NCBI GenBank assembly: GCA_965219995.1
Contig: CBDCOX010000002.1
Coordinates: 1,440,001 to 1,504,000 of the forward strand
Direction of reading: 5' to 3'
DNA: 64,000 bases
Source: Candidatus Latescibacterota bacterium
GTDB lineage: Bacteria > Latescibacterota > UBA2968 > GCA-2709665
Shown here: positions 55,948 through 63,054 of the stretch, in pieces
Position numbering within the stretch: position 1 is the stretch's first letter
Layout of the letters: the number at the start of each line of letters is the position of its first letter
Program-made: the position numbers and the translations under genes
Notes under the pieces: model-generated
Databases searched by the model: none
Seen by the model: only the letters and a program-made list of their open reading frames with translations
Told to the model about the DNA's origin: nothing

Positions 55948-56589
55948 CTATCCGTACATCGACAGGTCATCCCAACCCGAGGGCAGATGCGGTCGGGCCA
56001 TCGAGGCGTCGGGTCGCCAATCCTCCCATCCCTCGGAATACGGCCCTCCGGAGCCCTCGATTTCGGCTACGGCACGGTCTCCCTCTTCCCTCACCGCCCT
56101 GCCCTCTTGGGGTGTCATTCGACCCAGGCCGACCGCAAGATCCAGTTCATCGCGGTCCTTCCACTTCCAGCGCCGGTCCGGTTCAACGATAATGTCCAAC
56201 TGGTGATCCCTGAAATCGAAGCCCATCCCGGTCCGTGTCAATTGACTCTGAAGGTTGACGTACCAGCCCTGAAACACGCCTTCGGCCGACCATCGGACCC
56301 AGGTTGCGCGACGTTCGCCAGGCCGCACCAGGATCAGAAGCTCGGCCCACCGCCAGACCGAATCCACCAATGACCAGGAACGGTTGACCCAGTCCCGTGG
56401 TTTGCCTGGCACTTCGCGCGTAAACTCAGGCTTCTTCGTCGGCGTACCCAGCGGAAGCCAGAGCCTGGCTCGTGAATCTGAATCCTCGACGACGGTGACG
56501 GGCTTCACGTCGATGACCCGGCCGTTCTCGTCAAGTTCCCGATAGAGGATCGATTCCCCGCTGCGGAACCTGGATCGCACGGTTTCCAT
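55948..56589 (-). CDS. DUF402 domain protein
   Basis: WYVNL, DHQLD, WKDRDE motifs. Confidence 0.82.
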   Translation of the reverse strand: METVRSRFRSGESILYRELDENGRVIDVKPVTVVEDSDSRARLWLPLGTPTKKPEFTREVPGKPRDWVNRSWSLVDSVWRWAELLILVRPGERRATWVRWSAEGVFQGWYVNLQSQLTRTGMGFDFRDHQLDIIVEPDRRWKWKDRDELDLAVGLGRMTPQEGRAVREEGDRAVAEIEGSGGPYSEGWEDWRPDASMARPHLPSGWDDLSMYG

Positions 56590-56633
56590 GGAACGGGCTC
56601 CGCGGTGATCGGAACAAGCGATATGACGAAACG

Positions 56634-57104
56634 TCAATCCGCCATCGCCGCTGATCCGCTGGCGAAATCTCCCCCTTCGAGATTGCCGTTATCGACGAAC
56701 CACTGAGAATTCGCATACAGCGCCATGACCGACTTGTGTTTGAGGAACCCTTCTCTTCTGTAGAAATCCTGCTGGCCGTGTACGCCAGCCAGAATCACCC
56801 TGGGAACGGCGAGTTTTCTGAGGATTGATCCCAGGATTGCCCGACCGATACCCTGGCGTTGAAACTCCGGCGCGACGACAAGTTCGCACACGGTCGTAGA
56901 CGACTCTTCGTCGGATATTGCCCGGCCGCCCCCGACGAGCGCCTCGCCGCTGAAAGCGAAACAACAGACCTCGCTATTGGAATACGCCCGGCGGAGCTTT
57001 CCCGGATCCAGCTTTCCCAGAGGAAAGCGCCGGTAGACGTCGGCAAGGTCCATCCAGTTGACGCCTCGTGCATTCTCCCTGTAGACAATTTCGTTCGCGG
57101 ACAT
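56634..57104 (-). CDS. GNAT family N-acetyltransferase
   Basis: V.PEFQRQGIG, FYRREGF motifs. Confidence 0.88.
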   Translation of the reverse strand: MSANEIVYRENARGVNWMDLADVYRRFPLGKLDPGKLRRAYSNSEVCCFAFSGEALVGGGRAISDEESSTTVCELVVAPEFQRQGIGRAILGSILRKLAVPRVILAGVHGQQDFYRREGFLKHKSVMALYANSQWFVDNGNLEGGDFASGSAAMAD

Positions 57105-57218
57105 GTCCCCTCCCGGTTGGTGTGTGGCGATTTTCAATTGCGTTGCATGGCGTGTTTCTGAGCTCTCGACTTCGAAAAGCGAATGTCACGTAGATCAGAC
57201 TGCCGGGTCGATGCCGAT

Positions 57219-57782
57219 TCAATGTACGGCCGGCGCCGCCCGGTCGTTTTGTAATCCGCCACGATCGGTTTCCTGCTCAAGGGCATTCTCGAACTTTGCG
57301 ACCTCCGCACCGGACCGCAGGATCACGACGGTCTTTTCGTTCCTGATCCGTTCCAGGGATTCCAGGATGCCCGGCAGGCGTGTCCTGTTGTAGTTCCAGA
57401 TCCACTCCAGGAATTCGCGATCGGGCAACTGCTCCCGACAGCCGGGATGGATGTCCGGCCGGCTTCGTCCCAAATGCCTGATCGCCCTCCTGAATACTTG
57501 CAAGAGGCAGGTGAACCGGGGCAGCGCCAGCAGGATCACCGTATCGCCGGCTTCTATCCGCTCCTTCATCGTGCTGCCGTAGTTTCCGTCCAGTATCCAG
57601 GCGTCGCGCGCGCAGAGCGCCGTGTGCCGGCGCTGCCATTCCTCCTGCGGCGGTTTCTGCCAGTCGGGTTTCCAATAGACCGCGTCGAGGTGGACCACCG
57701 GCAAGTCCAGCAACGACCCGAGCCTGACCGCCAGCGTGGATTTTCCGGCGCCGCCGCAACCGATGATGCAGACCCGTCGCAT
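57219..57782 (-). CDS. topology modulation protein (FlaR)-like P-loop kinase
   Basis: IIGCGGAGKSTLA, HLD..YW, WILDGNY motifs. Confidence 0.88.
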   Translation of the reverse strand: MRRVCIIGCGGAGKSTLAVRLGSLLDLPVVHLDAVYWKPDWQKPPQEEWQRRHTALCARDAWILDGNYGSTMKERIEAGDTVILLALPRFTCLLQVFRRAIRHLGRSRPDIHPGCREQLPDREFLEWIWNYNRTRLPGILESLERIRNEKTVVILRSGAEVAKFENALEQETDRGGLQNDRAAPAVH

Positions 57783-57848
57783 GTCCGACACGGCGCCCTC
57801 GGCCCCGGTTCCTGGCTGTGTGTGTTCGTTGCACATCGCGCGCACGCC

Positions 57849-58709
57849 TCATCCCCATTTCAAGTCCGAAACGACCGGATAGTGGTCGCTGGGGTAGAGC
57901 GAACCCCGGTGGCGCCGTACGATCCAGGACTCTTCCACCTCCACCTCAACGGCGGGACAGCGGTAGAGGACCCAGTCCAAACGCCAGGAGAGATGATGCT
58001 GGAGCAAGTCGTATGCCGGTCCGTCATAGCCGTGATAGGTGTTCGACGCCGGACCGTCGCGAAGTCCGGCGCTCAGAAACGCGTCTTCGAAGCCTTTCTC
58101 TAGAAGGAAGCGATGTACCGCGTCGGTGATGGTGCTGCCCGCCGCGGCGGGATCCTCCACGCGGGGCGTCCACGGGTTGCAGTTGAAGTCTGCCGTCAGC
58201 AATTGGCGCTCCCCAGGTCTTGCAGCCGACGATATCCATCGGTTCAGCAGCGATGCGCCTTCGGTCCGCGCCTGCTCGCTGATGTGATCGAGATGGGTGT
58301 TGACATGTAGAAATTCCGCGTCAGTCGCCAGGTCGCGAAACCGGACCCACGTCGCCGTCCGAACGCAGGCCGATCCCCAGGAACGCGAGTAGTACTCCGG
58401 GGTTGCGCTGATCCAGAATCCGCCCCTCGAGCGTGGCCGAAGCCTCTCCCGCCGCCAGTAAACCGGGTTGAAGAGGTGGGGTGGATCGTTGGCGTGCGGG
58501 CCCTGGAAACTGTCGTACGCCTCCAGAGATTCGCCGAATGTGGCGAAATTCGGCCACTGAACTTCCTGAAAGCCGATAAGATCCGGCGACGTATCATCGA
58601 CCACCTCGCAGACCAGACCGGAGCGACCGGAACCGGTCCAGGCGTTCTCCGGCTCGTGTTCGTCGTATCCGCCGGCAATGTTGAAACTCATGACGCGAAG
58701 ACTTTCCAT
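57849..58709 (-). CDS. endonuclease/exonuclease/phosphatase family protein
   Basis: MSFNI, GFQEV, NTHLD, DFN, D, SDHYPV motifs. Confidence 0.9.
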   Translation of the reverse strand: MESLRVMSFNIAGGYDEHEPENAWTGSGRSGLVCEVVDDTSPDLIGFQEVQWPNFATFGESLEAYDSFQGPHANDPPHLFNPVYWRRERLRPRSRGGFWISATPEYYSRSWGSACVRTATWVRFRDLATDAEFLHVNTHLDHISEQARTEGASLLNRWISSAARPGERQLLTADFNCNPWTPRVEDPAAAGSTITDAVHRFLLEKGFEDAFLSAGLRDGPASNTYHGYDGPAYDLLQHHLSWRLDWVLYRCPAVEVEVEESWIVRRHRGSLYPSDHYPVVSDLKWG

Positions 58710-58783
58710 CTACCTGTACGGTCCTTCCGTTTTTCGGCATGTATGGACTCGATGTCCGGAATCCGAATCCTTCCGCTCCTGGA

Positions 58784-59089
58784 TTATCCGCCGGGGATGC
58801 GCGGACGCACCTCCCGGTCCAACCTGTCCGAAAGCTCGTCCTCGGCGACCTCGAGTTCATAGTTGGTCTGAATGCTCATCCAGTATCTGGGTGAGGTGTA
58901 GAAATATCGCGCGAGCCTCAACGCCGTATCCGCGGTGATGCCGCGTTTGCCCAGGACAATCTCATTGATGCGGCGAGGGGGCACCCCGATGGATAGTGCC
59001 AGATGGTTCTGGCTTAGATCCATCGGCTTGAGAAACTGTTCCAGCAATACGATTCCGGGATGAACGGGAACCGTTTCCCCAGCAGACAT
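58784..59089 (-). CDS. higA: HigA family antitoxin (XRE-HTH), orphan with no adjacent HigB toxin
   Basis: HPG..L...FL.P, RINEIVLGKRGITADTALRLARYF, W...Q..Y motifs; GGAG RBS. Confidence 0.93.
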   Translation of the reverse strand: MSAGETVPVHPGIVLLEQFLKPMDLSQNHLALSIGVPPRRINEIVLGKRGITADTALRLARYFYTSPRYWMSIQTNYELEVAEDELSDRLDREVRPRIPGG

Positions 59090-59161
59090 AGATTCATCTC
59101 CACGGGCGATCGTCTGCGTGTACAACCTCACAGGCGGCGCGGGCGGGACCGCCGCCAGGAT

Positions 59162-59190
59162 ATTATATAACGTTTTTCGTTAAATGACAA
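59162..59190 (-). promoter_or_regulatory. sigma70 promoter of higA
   Basis: Minus strand reads TTGTCA-N17-TATAAT; the spacer contains the palindrome TAACGAAAAACGTTA. Confidence 0.8.
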
Positions 59191-59308
59191 GTGTTAAATG
59201 AGATACGTTTAATATAATATATTAAATTATAAACGTTAAATGATTTTCATTAAATGGTATCCGTTTAATGTATCTCGTTTAATGTTATCCGTTAAACGTT
59301 TTACGTTA
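59169..59308. repeat. array of ten abutting 14-bp palindromic units, consensus AAYG-N5-CGTTW (putative HigA operators)
   Basis: Exact 14-bp period over 140 bp in an AT-rich island within GC-rich DNA. Confidence 0.88.
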
Positions 59309-59337
59309 TATCTTAAGGCGAACACAATCGTGGGAGA

Positions 59338-59399
59338 CCCTCACCCCCCAGCCCCGCAAACCTCTCCCCCCGGCCCCCTCTCCCGGGGGGAGAGGGGGT
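59338..59399. repeat. REP-like hairpin (CCCTCACCCC...CCCCCTCTCCC/GGGAGAGGGGG)
   Basis: Perfect GC stem at 59374-59398 downstream of the methyltransferase gene; may also terminate transcription. Confidence 0.6.
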
Positions 59400-59437
59400 G
59401 AAAACCGGAAAATCCGGCCACGCGTCGGGCGGAGCGG

Positions 59438-60127
59438 TCAGCTTTGGGTGATCCGCAGCATGTTCGAGTCGCCTCGGCGGAACTCGAAGGGCACGGGTAC
59501 GCGTTCGACGTTTGCCGACCGTTGCAGGGTCTGAATGGTAGCGCGCAGATGCTCCGATGGATTGCCGGCCAGGTCGAACAATGGAAATACCCGGACCTCT
59601 CTCCCCACTCGAAGCAGTTCCCGGAGGAATGAAAGGTGCGTTTCGAGGTTGAATTCCGAGGAGAACAGAAACAACATGTGGGAACAGAGGACGAGATCGA
59701 AGAATTTCGACCGGAAGGGTAAGGCGGGAAGAACCCCAGAGACGTACCGGCCACGCCGGTCTTCCGACCGGAAGTCGCGGAGGAAGGTTGCGAGAACGTC
59801 CCGTCGCAGCTGGATAACCGCTTCGGGGCTACCGTAGTGGTTCCACAGAAACCGTTCACGCGCCTTTCGCGTTCCCGCAAGCATGCGCGCGCCTGTGCGT
59901 TCGAAATCGGCTTCCAGGTTCCGGCCTGAGAACCTGTAGATTGGATCGACGGCGACGACGAATCGCCCTGTCCCGCCCCATTCTGCGGAGAATGACGACG
60001 TTCCGCCTCCGCAGTCCAGTATCCGCGCGGATGACGGGACATCGGACAACGCGAAGAACGCCTCGTATTCAGCCGCGCAGCGGCCCCAGGCGGGAACGGA
60101 ACCGCCGAAATCGAACTCACTGGACAT
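59438..60127 (-). CDS. SAM-dependent methyltransferase
   Basis: ILDCGGG.SSF, VDPIY, LPF...FDLVLCSH.LFL, EVRVFPL motifs. Confidence 0.85.
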   Translation of the reverse strand: MSSEFDFGGSVPAWGRCAAEYEAFFALSDVPSSARILDCGGGTSSFSAEWGGTGRFVVAVDPIYRFSGRNLEADFERTGARMLAGTRKARERFLWNHYGSPEAVIQLRRDVLATFLRDFRSEDRRGRYVSGVLPALPFRSKFFDLVLCSHMLFLFSSEFNLETHLSFLRELLRVGREVRVFPLFDLAGNPSEHLRATIQTLQRSANVERVPVPFEFRRGDSNMLRITQS

Positions 60128-60154
60128 CAGGTGGACAGCCAGGAACGAACACCG

Positions 60155-60288
60155 AATTCAACATCTACAACTCTCCAAAATCCCTAAAGGAGGTCGAAAA
60201 ACAGCAATGTGCGACCGTCTGCCAACAATTGTCAGTTAGAATCAGAGTCGAGAATCAAATTCAACATCCACATCTCCCCAAATTCCCT
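60155..60288 (+). repeat. 31-bp imperfect direct repeat
   Basis: AATTCAACATCTACAACTCTCCAAAATCCCT (60155-60185) vs AATTCAACATCCACATCTCCCCAAATTCCCT (60258-60288), 27/31 identical. Confidence 0.7.
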
Positions 60289-60725
60289 GCCTCCGGCGGG
60301 TTCCTTTTGAAGCGACCAAAAGGAACCAAAAGTCGCCGCTGGGCGCGGGGCCTGCGATATGCACAGCGCGAACACCCTCACAGGACGCTGGAGATTCTCT
60401 GGCCTTGCACCTGTGGAAGCATATCGAACCGCGTTGCTGGACGGATCAGCGCGCTCTGCTCTGGAAGTCGTCCGGTCTGGTAACACCTTCGTGGCCCGAT
60501 TGGCGCCTGAATGATGAGGACAGCCGTTAGCCGAAACCGGTTAGCGAAACGGTCAAGCGACTTCAATTCACGGACATCTGGCTTTCGTAGGGGCGGCTCG
60601 CGAACCGCACGGAATACGGCTTCTGCGCTAGCCTTACAGGCGCTCGGAACGCGGTTTCAATGGTTGCTTGTCCCCCGGCATGCGACTTGTCAGAACGCGA
60701 TGGATTAACCGCAGGCGGACCAACT

Positions 60726-60753
60726 CGTCTACCGTCTTCCGTCTCCCGTCTAA
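60726..60753. repeat. four tandem heptamers CGTCTNN
   Basis: CGTCTAC CGTCTTC CGTCTCC CGTCTAA; same unit as in 9064-9345; contains the stop codon of the GrpB gene. Confidence 0.65.
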
Positions 60754-61727
60754 CCGGTTTTTGGGCGTCCGTTCCGGACGACAGCTTCGATAAACTCGCC
60801 TTTGCCTGCCTGATAGGACGCCCGGTCCTTCGGGAACCGGTGCGCCAGGTCCCGTTTCAATCTCATGTAGTCGTCCGCAAGGCCGCGGTCCGATCGCAGG
60901 CGGTCCCTGAAACGGACGATCTCTTTCCAATCCGCGCTGGTTTTCTCGAACATGTGAATGTGATGGGTGCGAGGCGCACCTTTCCGGAAGAAGTGCCTTC
61001 GAGGGATGCCGTTTTCTCCCCTGTATTCGTACCCGATCCCACCGAGGGGCTGTATGCATACCCTGGCGCGTTCAAAATTCCTGACGGCGACCGCGATGTC
61101 CAACACCGGCTTGGCGGACATTCCCGGTATGGACGTGCTGCCCACGTGCTGGATGTCCTCCACATAATCACCGATCGTTTCTTCGATATTCTCTTTTTCC
61201 AACTTGAAGAGGGAGCTCCATTCTTCCAGATATGGGAAAACCGACACCTCCCCGCGATTCAAACCCAGCAGGGGTCCCCTGCTGAACAGTTCCGGGATAT
61301 GGCCCGGCGTCAGGAAAGTACGTAATTCCGGATCCACCATCGAGATGGATTCGTGCGAAATCCAGGAAAAGGCGAAGACAACGCCGGATTCCGGACCCAC
61401 CGTTCCGACGTGTTCCCACCTGTCCGGTAAATGAGGATCGGCATTGAACAGAAAGTCCGTCCGTTCCACGTCCGATTGGATATACGGCTTGAATTAGCCG
61501 GTCTTCCCGATCCTGCGGATGAACTGCAGGTTCTCGATTCCCGATTCCTCACGGGTTTCGCGGTGGGCGGCCTGAAGCGGCGTTTCACCGGCCTCGACGT
61601 TTCCCCCTGGCAGGCGATAGTATTCGTACCCGATGGATTTGAGTTCGAGGACGAGCAATTCGCATGTCCCATCCTCGTCGTACCTGATAATCAGCGCGAA
61701 CGCTTTGTGGACGAGCGGGTTCTTCAT
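60750..61727 (-). pseudogene. NUDIX hydrolase-GrpB (UPF0157) fusion interrupted by an in-frame TAA at 61494-61496; the GrpB part may be translated separately
   Basis: NUDIX box GGNVEAGETPLQAAHRETREESG, then TAA, then the same frame stays open through HVGSTSIPG..AKP.LD and FRD.LR of GrpB. Confidence 0.7.
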
Positions 61728-61779
61728 TGTCCTGGAACATGCGCCGTGGGAATTGTGGGTGCGTATCTCATTGATTCTA

Positions 61780-62274
61780 TCACTGTTGCGACGATATCCC
61801 CAGTCGTTTGCGGATGACCGCCAGTGTCTCCTCGGGCGTCTGGTTTCCGTTGTCGATCACGGTTCCGATTCCCGGATCGATATGCGAAGACCGATATTGT
61901 TCCCGTATGCGGTTTCGTTCCCGCTGAGACAGTTGCCGGCCGCCTCGATCGGAAACCGCTAATTCAACGGGCGGCCGGAGCGTGAACGCGTGTATGGAAA
62001 CGCAGGCGTCTTGCGCTTCACGTTCGAAGGCCGCGTAGTCACGATGTGAAATCGGCCACGTAACCACAACGTTGAACCCGCGCGAGAGCCAGTTTCGCGT
62101 CAGCATCGCGGCATCATCGACACAGTATGGACACGCTTCCGCCAGGCTCAGACAGTCGGCGAAGTGACGCAGTTCGTCGACCTCGATGTGTACGGTCCCG
62201 GGCAGGTTTTCCGCCAGAAGACGACCGACGGTCGACTTGCCGGAATTGATCGAACCGTTGATATAGATCAGCAT
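61780..62274 (-). CDS. P-loop small-molecule kinase (AAA_33-like)
   Basis: INGSINSGKSTV Walker A; R.R lid; IDN...TPEE. Confidence 0.8.
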   Translation of the reverse strand: MLIYINGSINSGKSTVGRLLAENLPGTVHIEVDELRHFADCLSLAEACPYCVDDAAMLTRNWLSRGFNVVVTWPISHRDYAAFEREAQDACVSIHAFTLRPPVELAVSDRGGRQLSQRERNRIREQYRSSHIDPGIGTVIDNGNQTPEETLAVIRKRLGISSQQ

Positions 62275-62286
62275 GGGGCGTGGCCG

Positions 62287-63054
62287 TCAGTCGATGAGGC
62301 CCCAGAGACGCTGCCGGTCGGCGGACCAGCCCGCCCAATCGGGGTGCACGTGTTTGATCGCCTCCAGGTCGCGCTTGCGGCCGCCCGCCGGGAAGTAATT
62401 CCACCCCATCGCACGCCGGGGTCCTGCGGCGGTCTTCAATCCTGTCGCGTGCCAGCAGGAGGGCGTCCACACCAGGGTCCACCGGGGGTCGAGGATGACC
62501 TCCACCTCGTGCGGGTGGCGGGCGTACAGTTGCCCTGGCATTTCGTCGTGCGTTCCGGTCGCCAATTCGAGCTGCATCAGCTCGGCTCTGACCTCCTCGG
62601 GCGGACGGTGCTGGCTGCCGGGCAGCACCCGGAGCGGCCCGTTGCTGGCGTCGTGGCGGTCAAGTGCGGTACGAAAGGAGACCTGGCGGACTTCCGGGCT
62701 GCCGTCCGCGTGCCAGGGGACCTGGCGCTGGCCCGTCCTTTCCGCCTTCGAGGCATCTCCAATGCCGCAGGCGCCCACGTGCACCCTTTCCACGCCCAGA
62801 ACCTGCCGCGCCGCTTCCACGATCTCCGGGCGCTCCACCATCTGCAGCACCGGTTCGCCGATCATCAGAAACAGGCAGGCCAGTCGGTTGCATCCCGTGG
62901 GAAACTCGCTGCGTTCCCACTCCGGCTCCACTTCCTGCTGCCGGTTGTCGACCAGACGCACGCCTTGCTCCCCCAGGGGATTCGGGATGAAGAAGAACCC
63001 GTTGCGTTCGAAGTGCGCCAGGTGGACATCGCTGATCTTCAGTTGATTCTCCAT
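62287..63054 (-). CDS. phytanoyl-CoA dioxygenase (PhyH) family protein
   Basis: FERNGF, WHAD, NGPLRVLPGS, WHA motifs. Confidence 0.85.
   Translation of the reverse strand: MENQLKISDVHLAHFERNGFFFIPNPLGEQGVRLVDNRQQEVEPEWERSEFPTGCNRLACLFLMIGEPVLQMVERPEIVEAARQVLGVERVHVGACGIGDASKAERTGQRQVPWHADGSPEVRQVSFRTALDRHDASNGPLRVLPGSQHRPPEEVRAELMQLELATGTHDEMPGQLYARHPHEVEVILDPRWTLVWTPSCWHATGLKTAAGPRRAMGWNYFPAGGRKRDLEAIKHVHPDWAGWSADRQRLWGLID

Follow-up and report, generated by a model that had tools for sequence, protein, structure and literature searches.

The window analyzed here is a stretch of 64,000 nucleotides from the genome of a Candidatus Latescibacterota bacterium (contig CBDCOX010000002.1, positions 1,440,001 to 1,504,000), in which a gene encoding an antitoxin of the HigA family, higA, is preceded by an array of ten operator-like units repeated at an exact period of 14 bp. 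As far as sequence can tell, this locus is a decayed higBA operon that descends from a two-unit operator and has lost its toxin gene, higB, and both higA and the conserved arms of the array are under purifying selection. In our best reading, to which we assign a probability of about 0.7, HigA was kept as a DNA-binding protein and its operator was expanded to a size that would hold up to ten dimers. The features that bear on this reading are the following:

59164-59312, no strand: whole array including two half-junctions (11 CRTTWAAYG junctions and 10 cores), 149 bp
59169-59195, no strand: units 1-2, promoter-proximal, counterpart of the ancestral two-unit operator, laid out as TATAACG-CTTGA-CGTTTAACG-N5-CGTTATA before higB of relatives
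59197-59308, no strand: units 3-10, eight additional operator units upstream of the -35 element, in register in 14 of the 15 genomes of the genus
59162-59190, minus strand: promoter, with -35 TTGTCA (59185-59190), a 17-nt spacer and -10 TATAAT (59162-59167), 11 of 12 matches
59090-59161, minus strand: 5' untranslated region (UTR), a remnant of higB after deletion of the toxin gene, recognized by alignment of the 3' stub
59097-59101, minus strand: ribosome-binding site GGAGA, 7 nt before the higA ATG, read directly; GGAGA or GGAGAA likewise precedes higA of the orthologues
58784-59089, minus strand: higA, intact, 101 aa, HTH-XRE antitoxin/repressor (TIGR02607, Pfam HTH_3)

On the plus strand, positions 59169-59308 comprise ten AAYG-N5-CRTT(W) units at an exact step of 14 bp; viewed otherwise, the same array consists of 11 copies of a 9-bp junction, CRTTWAAYG, and ten 5-bp cores, every one of them different, and in these respects the sequence reads as an earlier note on this DNA (the original prediction) had claimed. 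A search for the pattern AAYGNNNNNCRTTWAAYG with at most one mismatch returned 15 matches, all within 59169-59307, against a mean of 0.48 per shuffle (largest 3), and none of 100 shuffles reached 15. Likewise, Tandem Repeats Finder assigned periods of 14 and 28 to the array, and the GC content is 0.23-0.25 in two 100-bp segments inside it (59150-59299) compared with 0.49-0.71 in the flanking coding sequence; in the cores it is 0.19, against 0.61 for the genome. The genome-wide scan for such sites that the original prediction had proposed was run over all 5,435,880 bp and found the two-junction pattern in the array only (five forward and five reverse matches, with none for the reversed-pattern control). 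Furthermore, run X6, which belongs to a study other than that of the best holder, yielded a DNA contig that matches 59016-59311 with 0 differences, and since this segment is reproduced by an independent study the array is no assembly artefact.

The protein encoded behind the array is a clear member of its family by sequence, scoring 96.4 bits against the NCBIfam model TIGR02607 (curated cut-off 47.7) and 33.9 bits against Pfam HTH_3 (cut-off 23; E 3.3e-08); its gene does not directly follow a HigB/RelE-type toxin gene, a pairing that is ancestral here and no longer current. Its relatives in the PDB are 3TRB (VapI of Coxiella), PaHigA (6JPI/7CSV) and GraA (6F8H/6FIX), with phmmer E-values of 9e-16 to 5e-19 against the GraA/PaHigA-type structures. 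The list of open reading frames (ORFs) gives a GTG start at 59131, yet the ATG at 59089 is preferred because orthologues and the GGAGA ribosome-binding site support it. A TTGTCA-N17-TATAAT promoter overlapping the array about 70 bp before higA had been predicted, and it was found at 59190..59162 with the ATG 72 nt after the -10 element; unit 1 constitutes its spacer and the -35 element lies inside the core of unit 2, a CTTGT that is invariant (pairwise difference 0.000) across the ten 10-unit arrays of the genus. Transcription from this promoter would be expected to begin near 59155 on the minus strand. Also as predicted, no higB ORF was found between promoter and higA. The 5' UTR contains a 3' stub of the toxin gene, ...GACGATCGCCCGTGGAG, whose counterparts by alignment are the final part of the higB pseudogene in one genome of the genus (G019) and that of intact higB in the related loci L008-L013, and no stable fold was detected in this UTR (z 0.07, no better than shuffles). 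Contigs from RNA libraries of three runs in two studies, derived from close relatives and seen as assembled contigs only, cover higA and leave the array uncovered, a gap to which we attach no meaning; indicating neither start nor strand nor level of transcription, they hint weakly at its expression, and carry-over of DNA may account for them.

In order to follow the locus through the genus, the genome containing the window was compared with 14 others. The methyltransferase gene that lies upstream of the array is present in all 14 of these and in none of seven genomes from other genera of the family, and higA is found within 1.5 kb after it in 12 of the 14. In the remaining two, G017 and G018, a PIN-domain toxin-antitoxin-like pair is inserted, and the array, a higB pseudogene and higA lie about 1.4-1.6 kb downstream of the methyltransferase gene. 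Arrays stand at the same locus in 14 of the 15 genomes, with 10 units in ten of them (149 bp), 11 in G007 (163 bp), 8 in G019 (121 bp) and G017, and 7 in G018, the counts for G017 and G018 having been made by eye from printed sequences without a computation of length. All differences in array length are multiples of 14 bp, whereas the flanking spacers range over 128-589 bp and 71-294 bp, and no off-register insertion or deletion was seen in the 12 arrays laid in register or in the two read by eye. In G010 (L110), about 200 bp upstream of the array, there is a further, perfect two-unit operator that includes a -10 element, TATATAACG-TTTAT-CGTTTAACG-AATAT-CGTTATAAT; no gene is obvious behind it, and it may have been left over from a different higBA promoter. 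In G011 (L099), the genome devoid of an array, the deletion lies between short direct repeats, CCGTCCYGCC, which also flank the array in G014; higA and stubs of the 5' UTR remain in G011, and promoter-like sequence upstream of them is not evident.

A working higB is found in none of the 15 genomes, which bears out the proposal of a toxin-less module. The pseudogene in G019 is interrupted by two stops and one frameshift, the pieces in G017, which likewise has stops and frameshifts, lie in three frames and those of G018 are similar in appearance; the other 12 genomes, that of the window included, retain only the 3' stub of higB, in most cases together with a 5' stub, GTGCGATCCTTCGAAAATCGG, that matches MIRSFRDRE. 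Thus, the description of higA as an orphan holds in that the toxin is absent, but not as an original orphan design, since stubs of higB persist in the 5' UTR and a full-length pseudogene in three genomes.

HigA is intact, with 101 aa, in all 15 genomes. The ratio of nonsynonymous to synonymous substitution (dN/dS) has a median of 0.141 over 105 pairs and a maximum of 0.265, compared with a median of 0.072 in toxin-linked relatives (ten pairs from five relatives); constraint on higA is therefore somewhat relaxed, and clearly purifying. Divergence of the array was computed from the ten 10-unit arrays, those of G007, G019, G017 and G018 being set aside for their other unit numbers. The mean pairwise difference is 0.143 at the eight arm positions, 0.039 at the TT/AA positions and 0.419 in the cores (Mann-Whitney p 4e-9, the columns not being independent), and the value for the cores is comparable to the median synonymous difference of higA, 0.31 over 78 pairs. 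In the distal junctions the TT/AA positions are as conserved as in the proximal ones (0.00-0.14 per pair), although the cores between them differ by 0.43-0.58, at or above the synonymous rate of higA. The two promoter-proximal cores show little difference (0.000 and 0.111), in line with their roles as -35 element and spacer; the cores as a set are nearly randomized, with an identity of 0.49 at the orthologous index versus 0.38 off-index, and still hold 19% GC. Because arms are conserved next to cores that diverge at a synonymous-like rate, selection acts throughout the array on arm sequence, on spacing and on how A/T-rich the cores are, in agreement with the claim that the units are sites under selection and not a slippage minisatellite. 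Homogenization by slippage or gene conversion cannot explain the pattern, because cores would have been copied together with arms. A slippage minisatellite was rejected: the ten cores differ, unit positions are orthologous across genomes, and the independent DNA run shows no difference. Taken together, conserved arms, exact spacing and A/T-rich cores are the signature of protein-binding sites arranged in a phased array.

The origin of the array becomes apparent from relatives outside the genus. In a sample of the 80 closest HigA loci, with one genome per species and chains of units counted at 14-bp spacing, the longest chain is one unit in 47 loci and two units in 31, and it is long only in L006 and L007, both from this genus; shuffled loci reached a chain of at least two in 20 of 240 trials. 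Most two-unit sites stand directly before higB-higA and read YATAACG-CTTGA-CGTTTAACG-N5-CGTTATA, where CTTGAC is the -35 and TTATA the -10 element. In the close relatives L008-L014 higB is intact and the recognition helix of HigA is identical or nearly identical to that of the window, VPPRRINEIVLGKRGITADTALRLARYF. In ordinary higBA loci labelled Latescibacterota (e.g. L008, L009, L012 and L013), whose HigA is 75-81% identical to that of the window, the operator-promoter is TATAACG-CTTGT/CTTGA-CGTTTAACG-N5-CGTTATA, with the 14-bp offset of the window, and since the two-unit operators of relatives share this offset it represents the normal design of this HigBA subfamily. The ordinary loci thus combine two units (three, by eye, in L014) with an intact higB, in contrast to the genus arrays, which combine 7-11 units with no working higB. 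This was the outcome of the search upstream of homologues that the original prediction had called for, and it indicates, from sequence comparison, that the locus is what remains of a higBA operon with a two-unit operator. As a separate observation, a 33-bp version, YATAACG-CTTGAC-GTTTAACG-N5-CGTTATA, occurs near letter for letter before higB in L045, L022, L059 and others whose records carry the labels of many phyla, such as Chloroflexota and Actinomycetota, and the near-invariance of this operator-promoter across phyla suggests a widely transferred cassette that brings its own promoter.

Other targets and other arrays were also searched for. The site AACG-N5-CGTT occurs 111 times in the genome, compared with 115-159 occurrences at spacings N3, N4, N6 and N7, and the extended site TTWAAYG-N5-CRTTWAA occurs five times, all in the array; a HigA regulon was rejected, as the former site is no commoner than other spacings and the latter is confined to the array. 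At the seven other HigA loci of the same genome no chain of two units was found, and these seven paralogues have recognition helices that differ from that of the window HigA. The suggestion that the array acts as a sink for other HigA proteins therefore finds no partner among them, and we regard such a role as unlikely. With respect to toxins, PF05015 is represented in the genome by one intact gene, next to its own HigA paralogue, and by a second copy that is split. The latter (G000:C2:1614641-1615358, L087) is a paralogous higB divided by an insert of about 150 bp, with two PF05015 hits below the cut-off, and stands before an intact HigA paralogue; a near-identical HigA paralogue without toxin lies 6 kb away (L086).

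A scan for four consensus junctions in genome contigs of 185,579 species returned 20 loci (L113-L132), one of them from this genus (L120), and no comparable array outside the genus, the scan being strict enough that degenerate arrays would be missed. L119 lies near a HigA of 35% identity and was rejected, as its units are near-identical and a hairpin and higB-like remains with a different palindrome of their own lie between; the other 18 loci were rejected as microsatellites made of homogeneous units of 7 or 14 bp, without any match to HigA or HigB. Microsatellites of this kind, (GTTTAAC)n, (GTTTAAT)n and 14-bp forms, lie between genes in many genomes, among them many Bacteroidota and one Methanococcoides, with no higA nearby. 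The four-junction pattern was found at no locus in viral contigs. Among the 80 closest metagenome HigA loci no expansion was observed, with one unit in 55, two in 24 and a spurious (AACAATG)n run in one.

Based on the above, we hypothesize that in the ancestral design a sigma-70-type promoter was overlaid by two abutting sites for HigA dimers, each site being AAC-N7-GTT (AACG-N5-CGTT) and neighbours sharing a CGTT-W-AACG junction, which would place them 14 bp apart. With a 9-bp junction repeated at each 14-bp step, whole units can be gained or lost through slipped-strand mispairing, and in the ancestor of the genus the array would have grown to about 7-11 units and higB would have been inactivated; selection since then would have retained arm sequences, exact spacing and A/T-rich cores. 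At this expanded operator up to ten HigA dimers are predicted to load side by side, one per unit, the two proximal dimers covering the -35 element, spacer and -10 element and so occluding the promoter, and the eight upstream dimers adding cooperative occupancy. The outcome would be a tight, switch-like autorepression of higA, perhaps also of genes reached by read-through, and about 20 HigA monomers would be kept as a pool on the DNA. From geometry only, a 14-bp step on a helix of 10.5 bp per turn would set successive dimers at an angle of about 120 degrees to each other. In this scheme the identification of HigA as the binding protein, the number of dimers, their cooperativity and the benefit to the cell are inferences. 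A more specific proposal, which we advance tentatively and would not bet on at even odds, is that the HigA-DNA assembly itself has been kept, as a spiral of 7-11 dimers that stores and buffers antitoxin on the DNA against related HigB toxins of mobile elements (anti-addiction) or as an ultrasensitive many-site switch.

Several observations weigh against a fully loaded operator maintained by selection. Many inner arms are CATT/AATG, unlike the CGTT/AACG of ordinary operators, and two junctions in the array are degenerate, AATTTAATA and TATTAAACG, from which it follows that the array may be only partially occupied. G011 lacks the whole array, yet its higA is intact and 96% identical to that of the window; therefore higA can be retained without the array, at least for a short period. 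The second core of ordinary two-unit operators is frequently rich in GC; binding thus does not generally require A/T-rich cores, and such a requirement does not account for their retention here. The genomes of the genus are moreover kin, and the counts and differences given above describe one lineage and not independent events. Finally, side-by-side binding at 14 bp is not known for any HigA; in the solved complexes, GraA and PaHigA dimers interleave at 7 bp.

The surroundings of the locus are relevant to what else the array might control, and include the following features:

59438-60127, minus strand: gene encoding a methyltransferase-like protein (S-adenosylmethionine-dependent; Pfam Methyltransf_11), upstream neighbour and synteny anchor
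57849-58709, minus strand: gene of the Exo_endo_phos family (EEP; Pfam), downstream neighbour, 74 nt after higA
59339-59419, no strand: multi-copy palindromic repeat, GC-rich, which follows the methyltransferase gene and lies outside the operator, CCCCCTCTCCC...GGGAGAGGGGG...

These genes belong to a run of co-directional genes for small accessory enzymes on the minus strand (55948-63054), which encodes PhyH, an AAA_33 kinase-like protein, a 77-aa NUDIX ORF that looks truncated, GrpB, the methyltransferase, HigA, Exo_endo_phos, a P-loop protein, GNAT and DUF402. The palindromic element at 59339-59419 reaches a word depth of 365 against about 8 in the DNA run X6, and of 160 in the RNA-library run X18, and has many different loose ends; relatives have it once or twice in the same spacer, and it looks REP- or MITE-like. 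In G017 (L213, 486-1140), and at the same place in G018 (L214), a small ORF and a PIN_3 gene (7e-20) form a VapBC-like pair between the methyltransferase gene and the array, and the spot seems to collect toxin-antitoxin cassettes.

As an alternative that we find doubtful, although compatible with the best explanation and different from it only in the target of selection, HigA may be a domesticated repressor which, together with the array, switches the co-directional downstream genes (Exo_endo_phos, P-loop kinase-like, GNAT and DUF402), the extra sites sharpening or strengthening control. All downstream genes lie on the strand of higA, and between higA and the EEP gene, in a spacer of 74 nt, no terminator-like site or stable fold was found (z 0.81, no better than shuffles). 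Because no terminator follows higA, control of the downstream genes is possible, and the EEP gene is possibly co-transcribed with it. L006 (G009), the sole relative locus long enough to be compared, preserves the order higA, EEP, P-loop, GNAT, and an EEP gene, whole or partial, follows higA in 10 of the 12 other genomes searched. Nevertheless, it was not found after higA in the G007 and G019 loci searched, and in those of G006 and G010 only its last 70-72 residues were found, and in all four of these genomes the array persists.

We consider it improbable that the array is a neutral relic, an operator inflated by slippage in which only the two proximal units matter and the upstream ones are decaying. 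Whole-unit slippage is eased by a junction repeated every 14 bp, as the variation from 7 to 11 units suggests, and the degeneracy of some inner junctions and the deletion of the array in G011 with retention of higA are what a relic would be expected to show. In contrast, decay would hardly have left the distal TT/AA positions conserved, at a difference of 0.00-0.10 per pair, beside cores that differ by 0.43-0.58, nor the arrays compared free of off-register changes, nor near-random cores at 19% GC in a 61% GC genome, and concerted evolution would have homogenized the cores too.

Least probable, and barely so at all, is a function other than HigA binding, such as that of a site resembling a centromere or iterons, of a site for nucleoid proteins or of an AT-rich element of the UP or unwinding type, as the contiguous run of 7-11 short sites, reminiscent of the omega parS of pSM19035 (PMC9499535), and the strong AT-richness of the array are outweighed by a motif identical to the operator that precedes higB-higA in many phyla, by its single chromosomal copy per genome, by the small enzymes, and no ParA, Rep or initiator, that Pfam names among the ten neighbouring ORFs scanned (55.9-63.1 kb), and by G011, whose genome is rated 95% complete and in which the array is absent and hence not essential. 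The suggestion of a centromere-like site is not supported, as neither a ParA/ParM or Rep gene among the ten neighbouring ORFs scanned nor a need of the site for maintenance, absent as it is in G011, was found to match parS/parC arrays or plasmid iterons, and a role as centromere or origin is unlikely.

In textbooks, type II antitoxins repress their own promoters from one or two operator sites, and an antitoxin without a toxin is commonly written off as debris. At this locus selection has maintained a lone HigA together with an operator five times the usual size throughout a genus that has lost the toxin, and the locus points to a role of the antitoxin-DNA complex apart from control of the toxin, which would make it a concrete case of exaptation of a toxin-antitoxin regulator. 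If the assembly itself has been kept, no HTH-XRE antitoxin would have been described before with a filament-like operator for many dimers. The loci also provide a natural series of 2, 3, 7, 8, 10 and 11 units, along with one natural deletion, for relating site number to cooperativity or dosage, and a compact and exactly phased protein-DNA scaffold suited to structural study.

Among known systems, the closest by protein family are GraA/GraT of Pseudomonas putida and HigA/HigB of P. aeruginosa (complexes 6FIX and 6JPI), which share with the locus a toxin gene placed first (in the ancestral operon here) and TAAC-type half-sites. Each dimer on the GraA operator, AAATTAACGAATAACGTTAAG..., spans AAC-N7-GTT, the HTH contacts TAAC half-sites, and two dimers bind with an obligatory cooperativity transmitted through the DNA (PMC6393540); PMC6987408 reports the same of PaHigA on TTAAC/GTTAA. 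The operator TTAACG-AATAA-CGTTAA, cited in the original prediction, does appear in Table 1 of PMC6393540. The likeness in geometry that was drawn from it stands for the AAC-N7-GTT site of each dimer, which the array shares, but not for the arrangement of dimers: GraA and PaHigA load two dimers interleaved on a central TAAC|GTTA, at a 7-bp offset within an operator of 28-33 bp, whereas in the window the sites abut at 14 bp through GTT-W-AAC, number ten instead of two and have outlived the toxin gene. Since the cores are variable, no conserved half-site exists at a 7-bp offset in the array. Loading of more than one dimer per operator, documented for GraA and PaHigA, is for the array a prediction.

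The nearest functional analogy may be omega, the ribbon-helix-helix ParB protein of pSM19035, which requires at least four contiguous 7-bp heptads and whose dimers are modelled as a spiral on straight DNA (PMC9499535). Like HigA, omega is a small dimeric repressor tied to a toxin-antitoxin cassette and acting on a contiguous run of short sites; it differs in its fold, in the 7-bp repeats, in its plasmid location, in having a ParA ATPase as partner and in its centromere role. Expanded operator arrays of antitoxins were not found in a literature search limited to listings and the openings of abstracts. Genome surveys have widely reported antitoxin genes kept without their toxin, known as orphan or solitary antitoxins or as anti-addiction modules, and what distinguishes the present locus from them is an enlarged operator under selection and a state fixed across the genus. 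The departure from the described HigA/GraA operators is thus threefold, with 7-11 sites in place of one or two, a side-by-side phasing, and persistence of the operator under selection after loss of the toxin.

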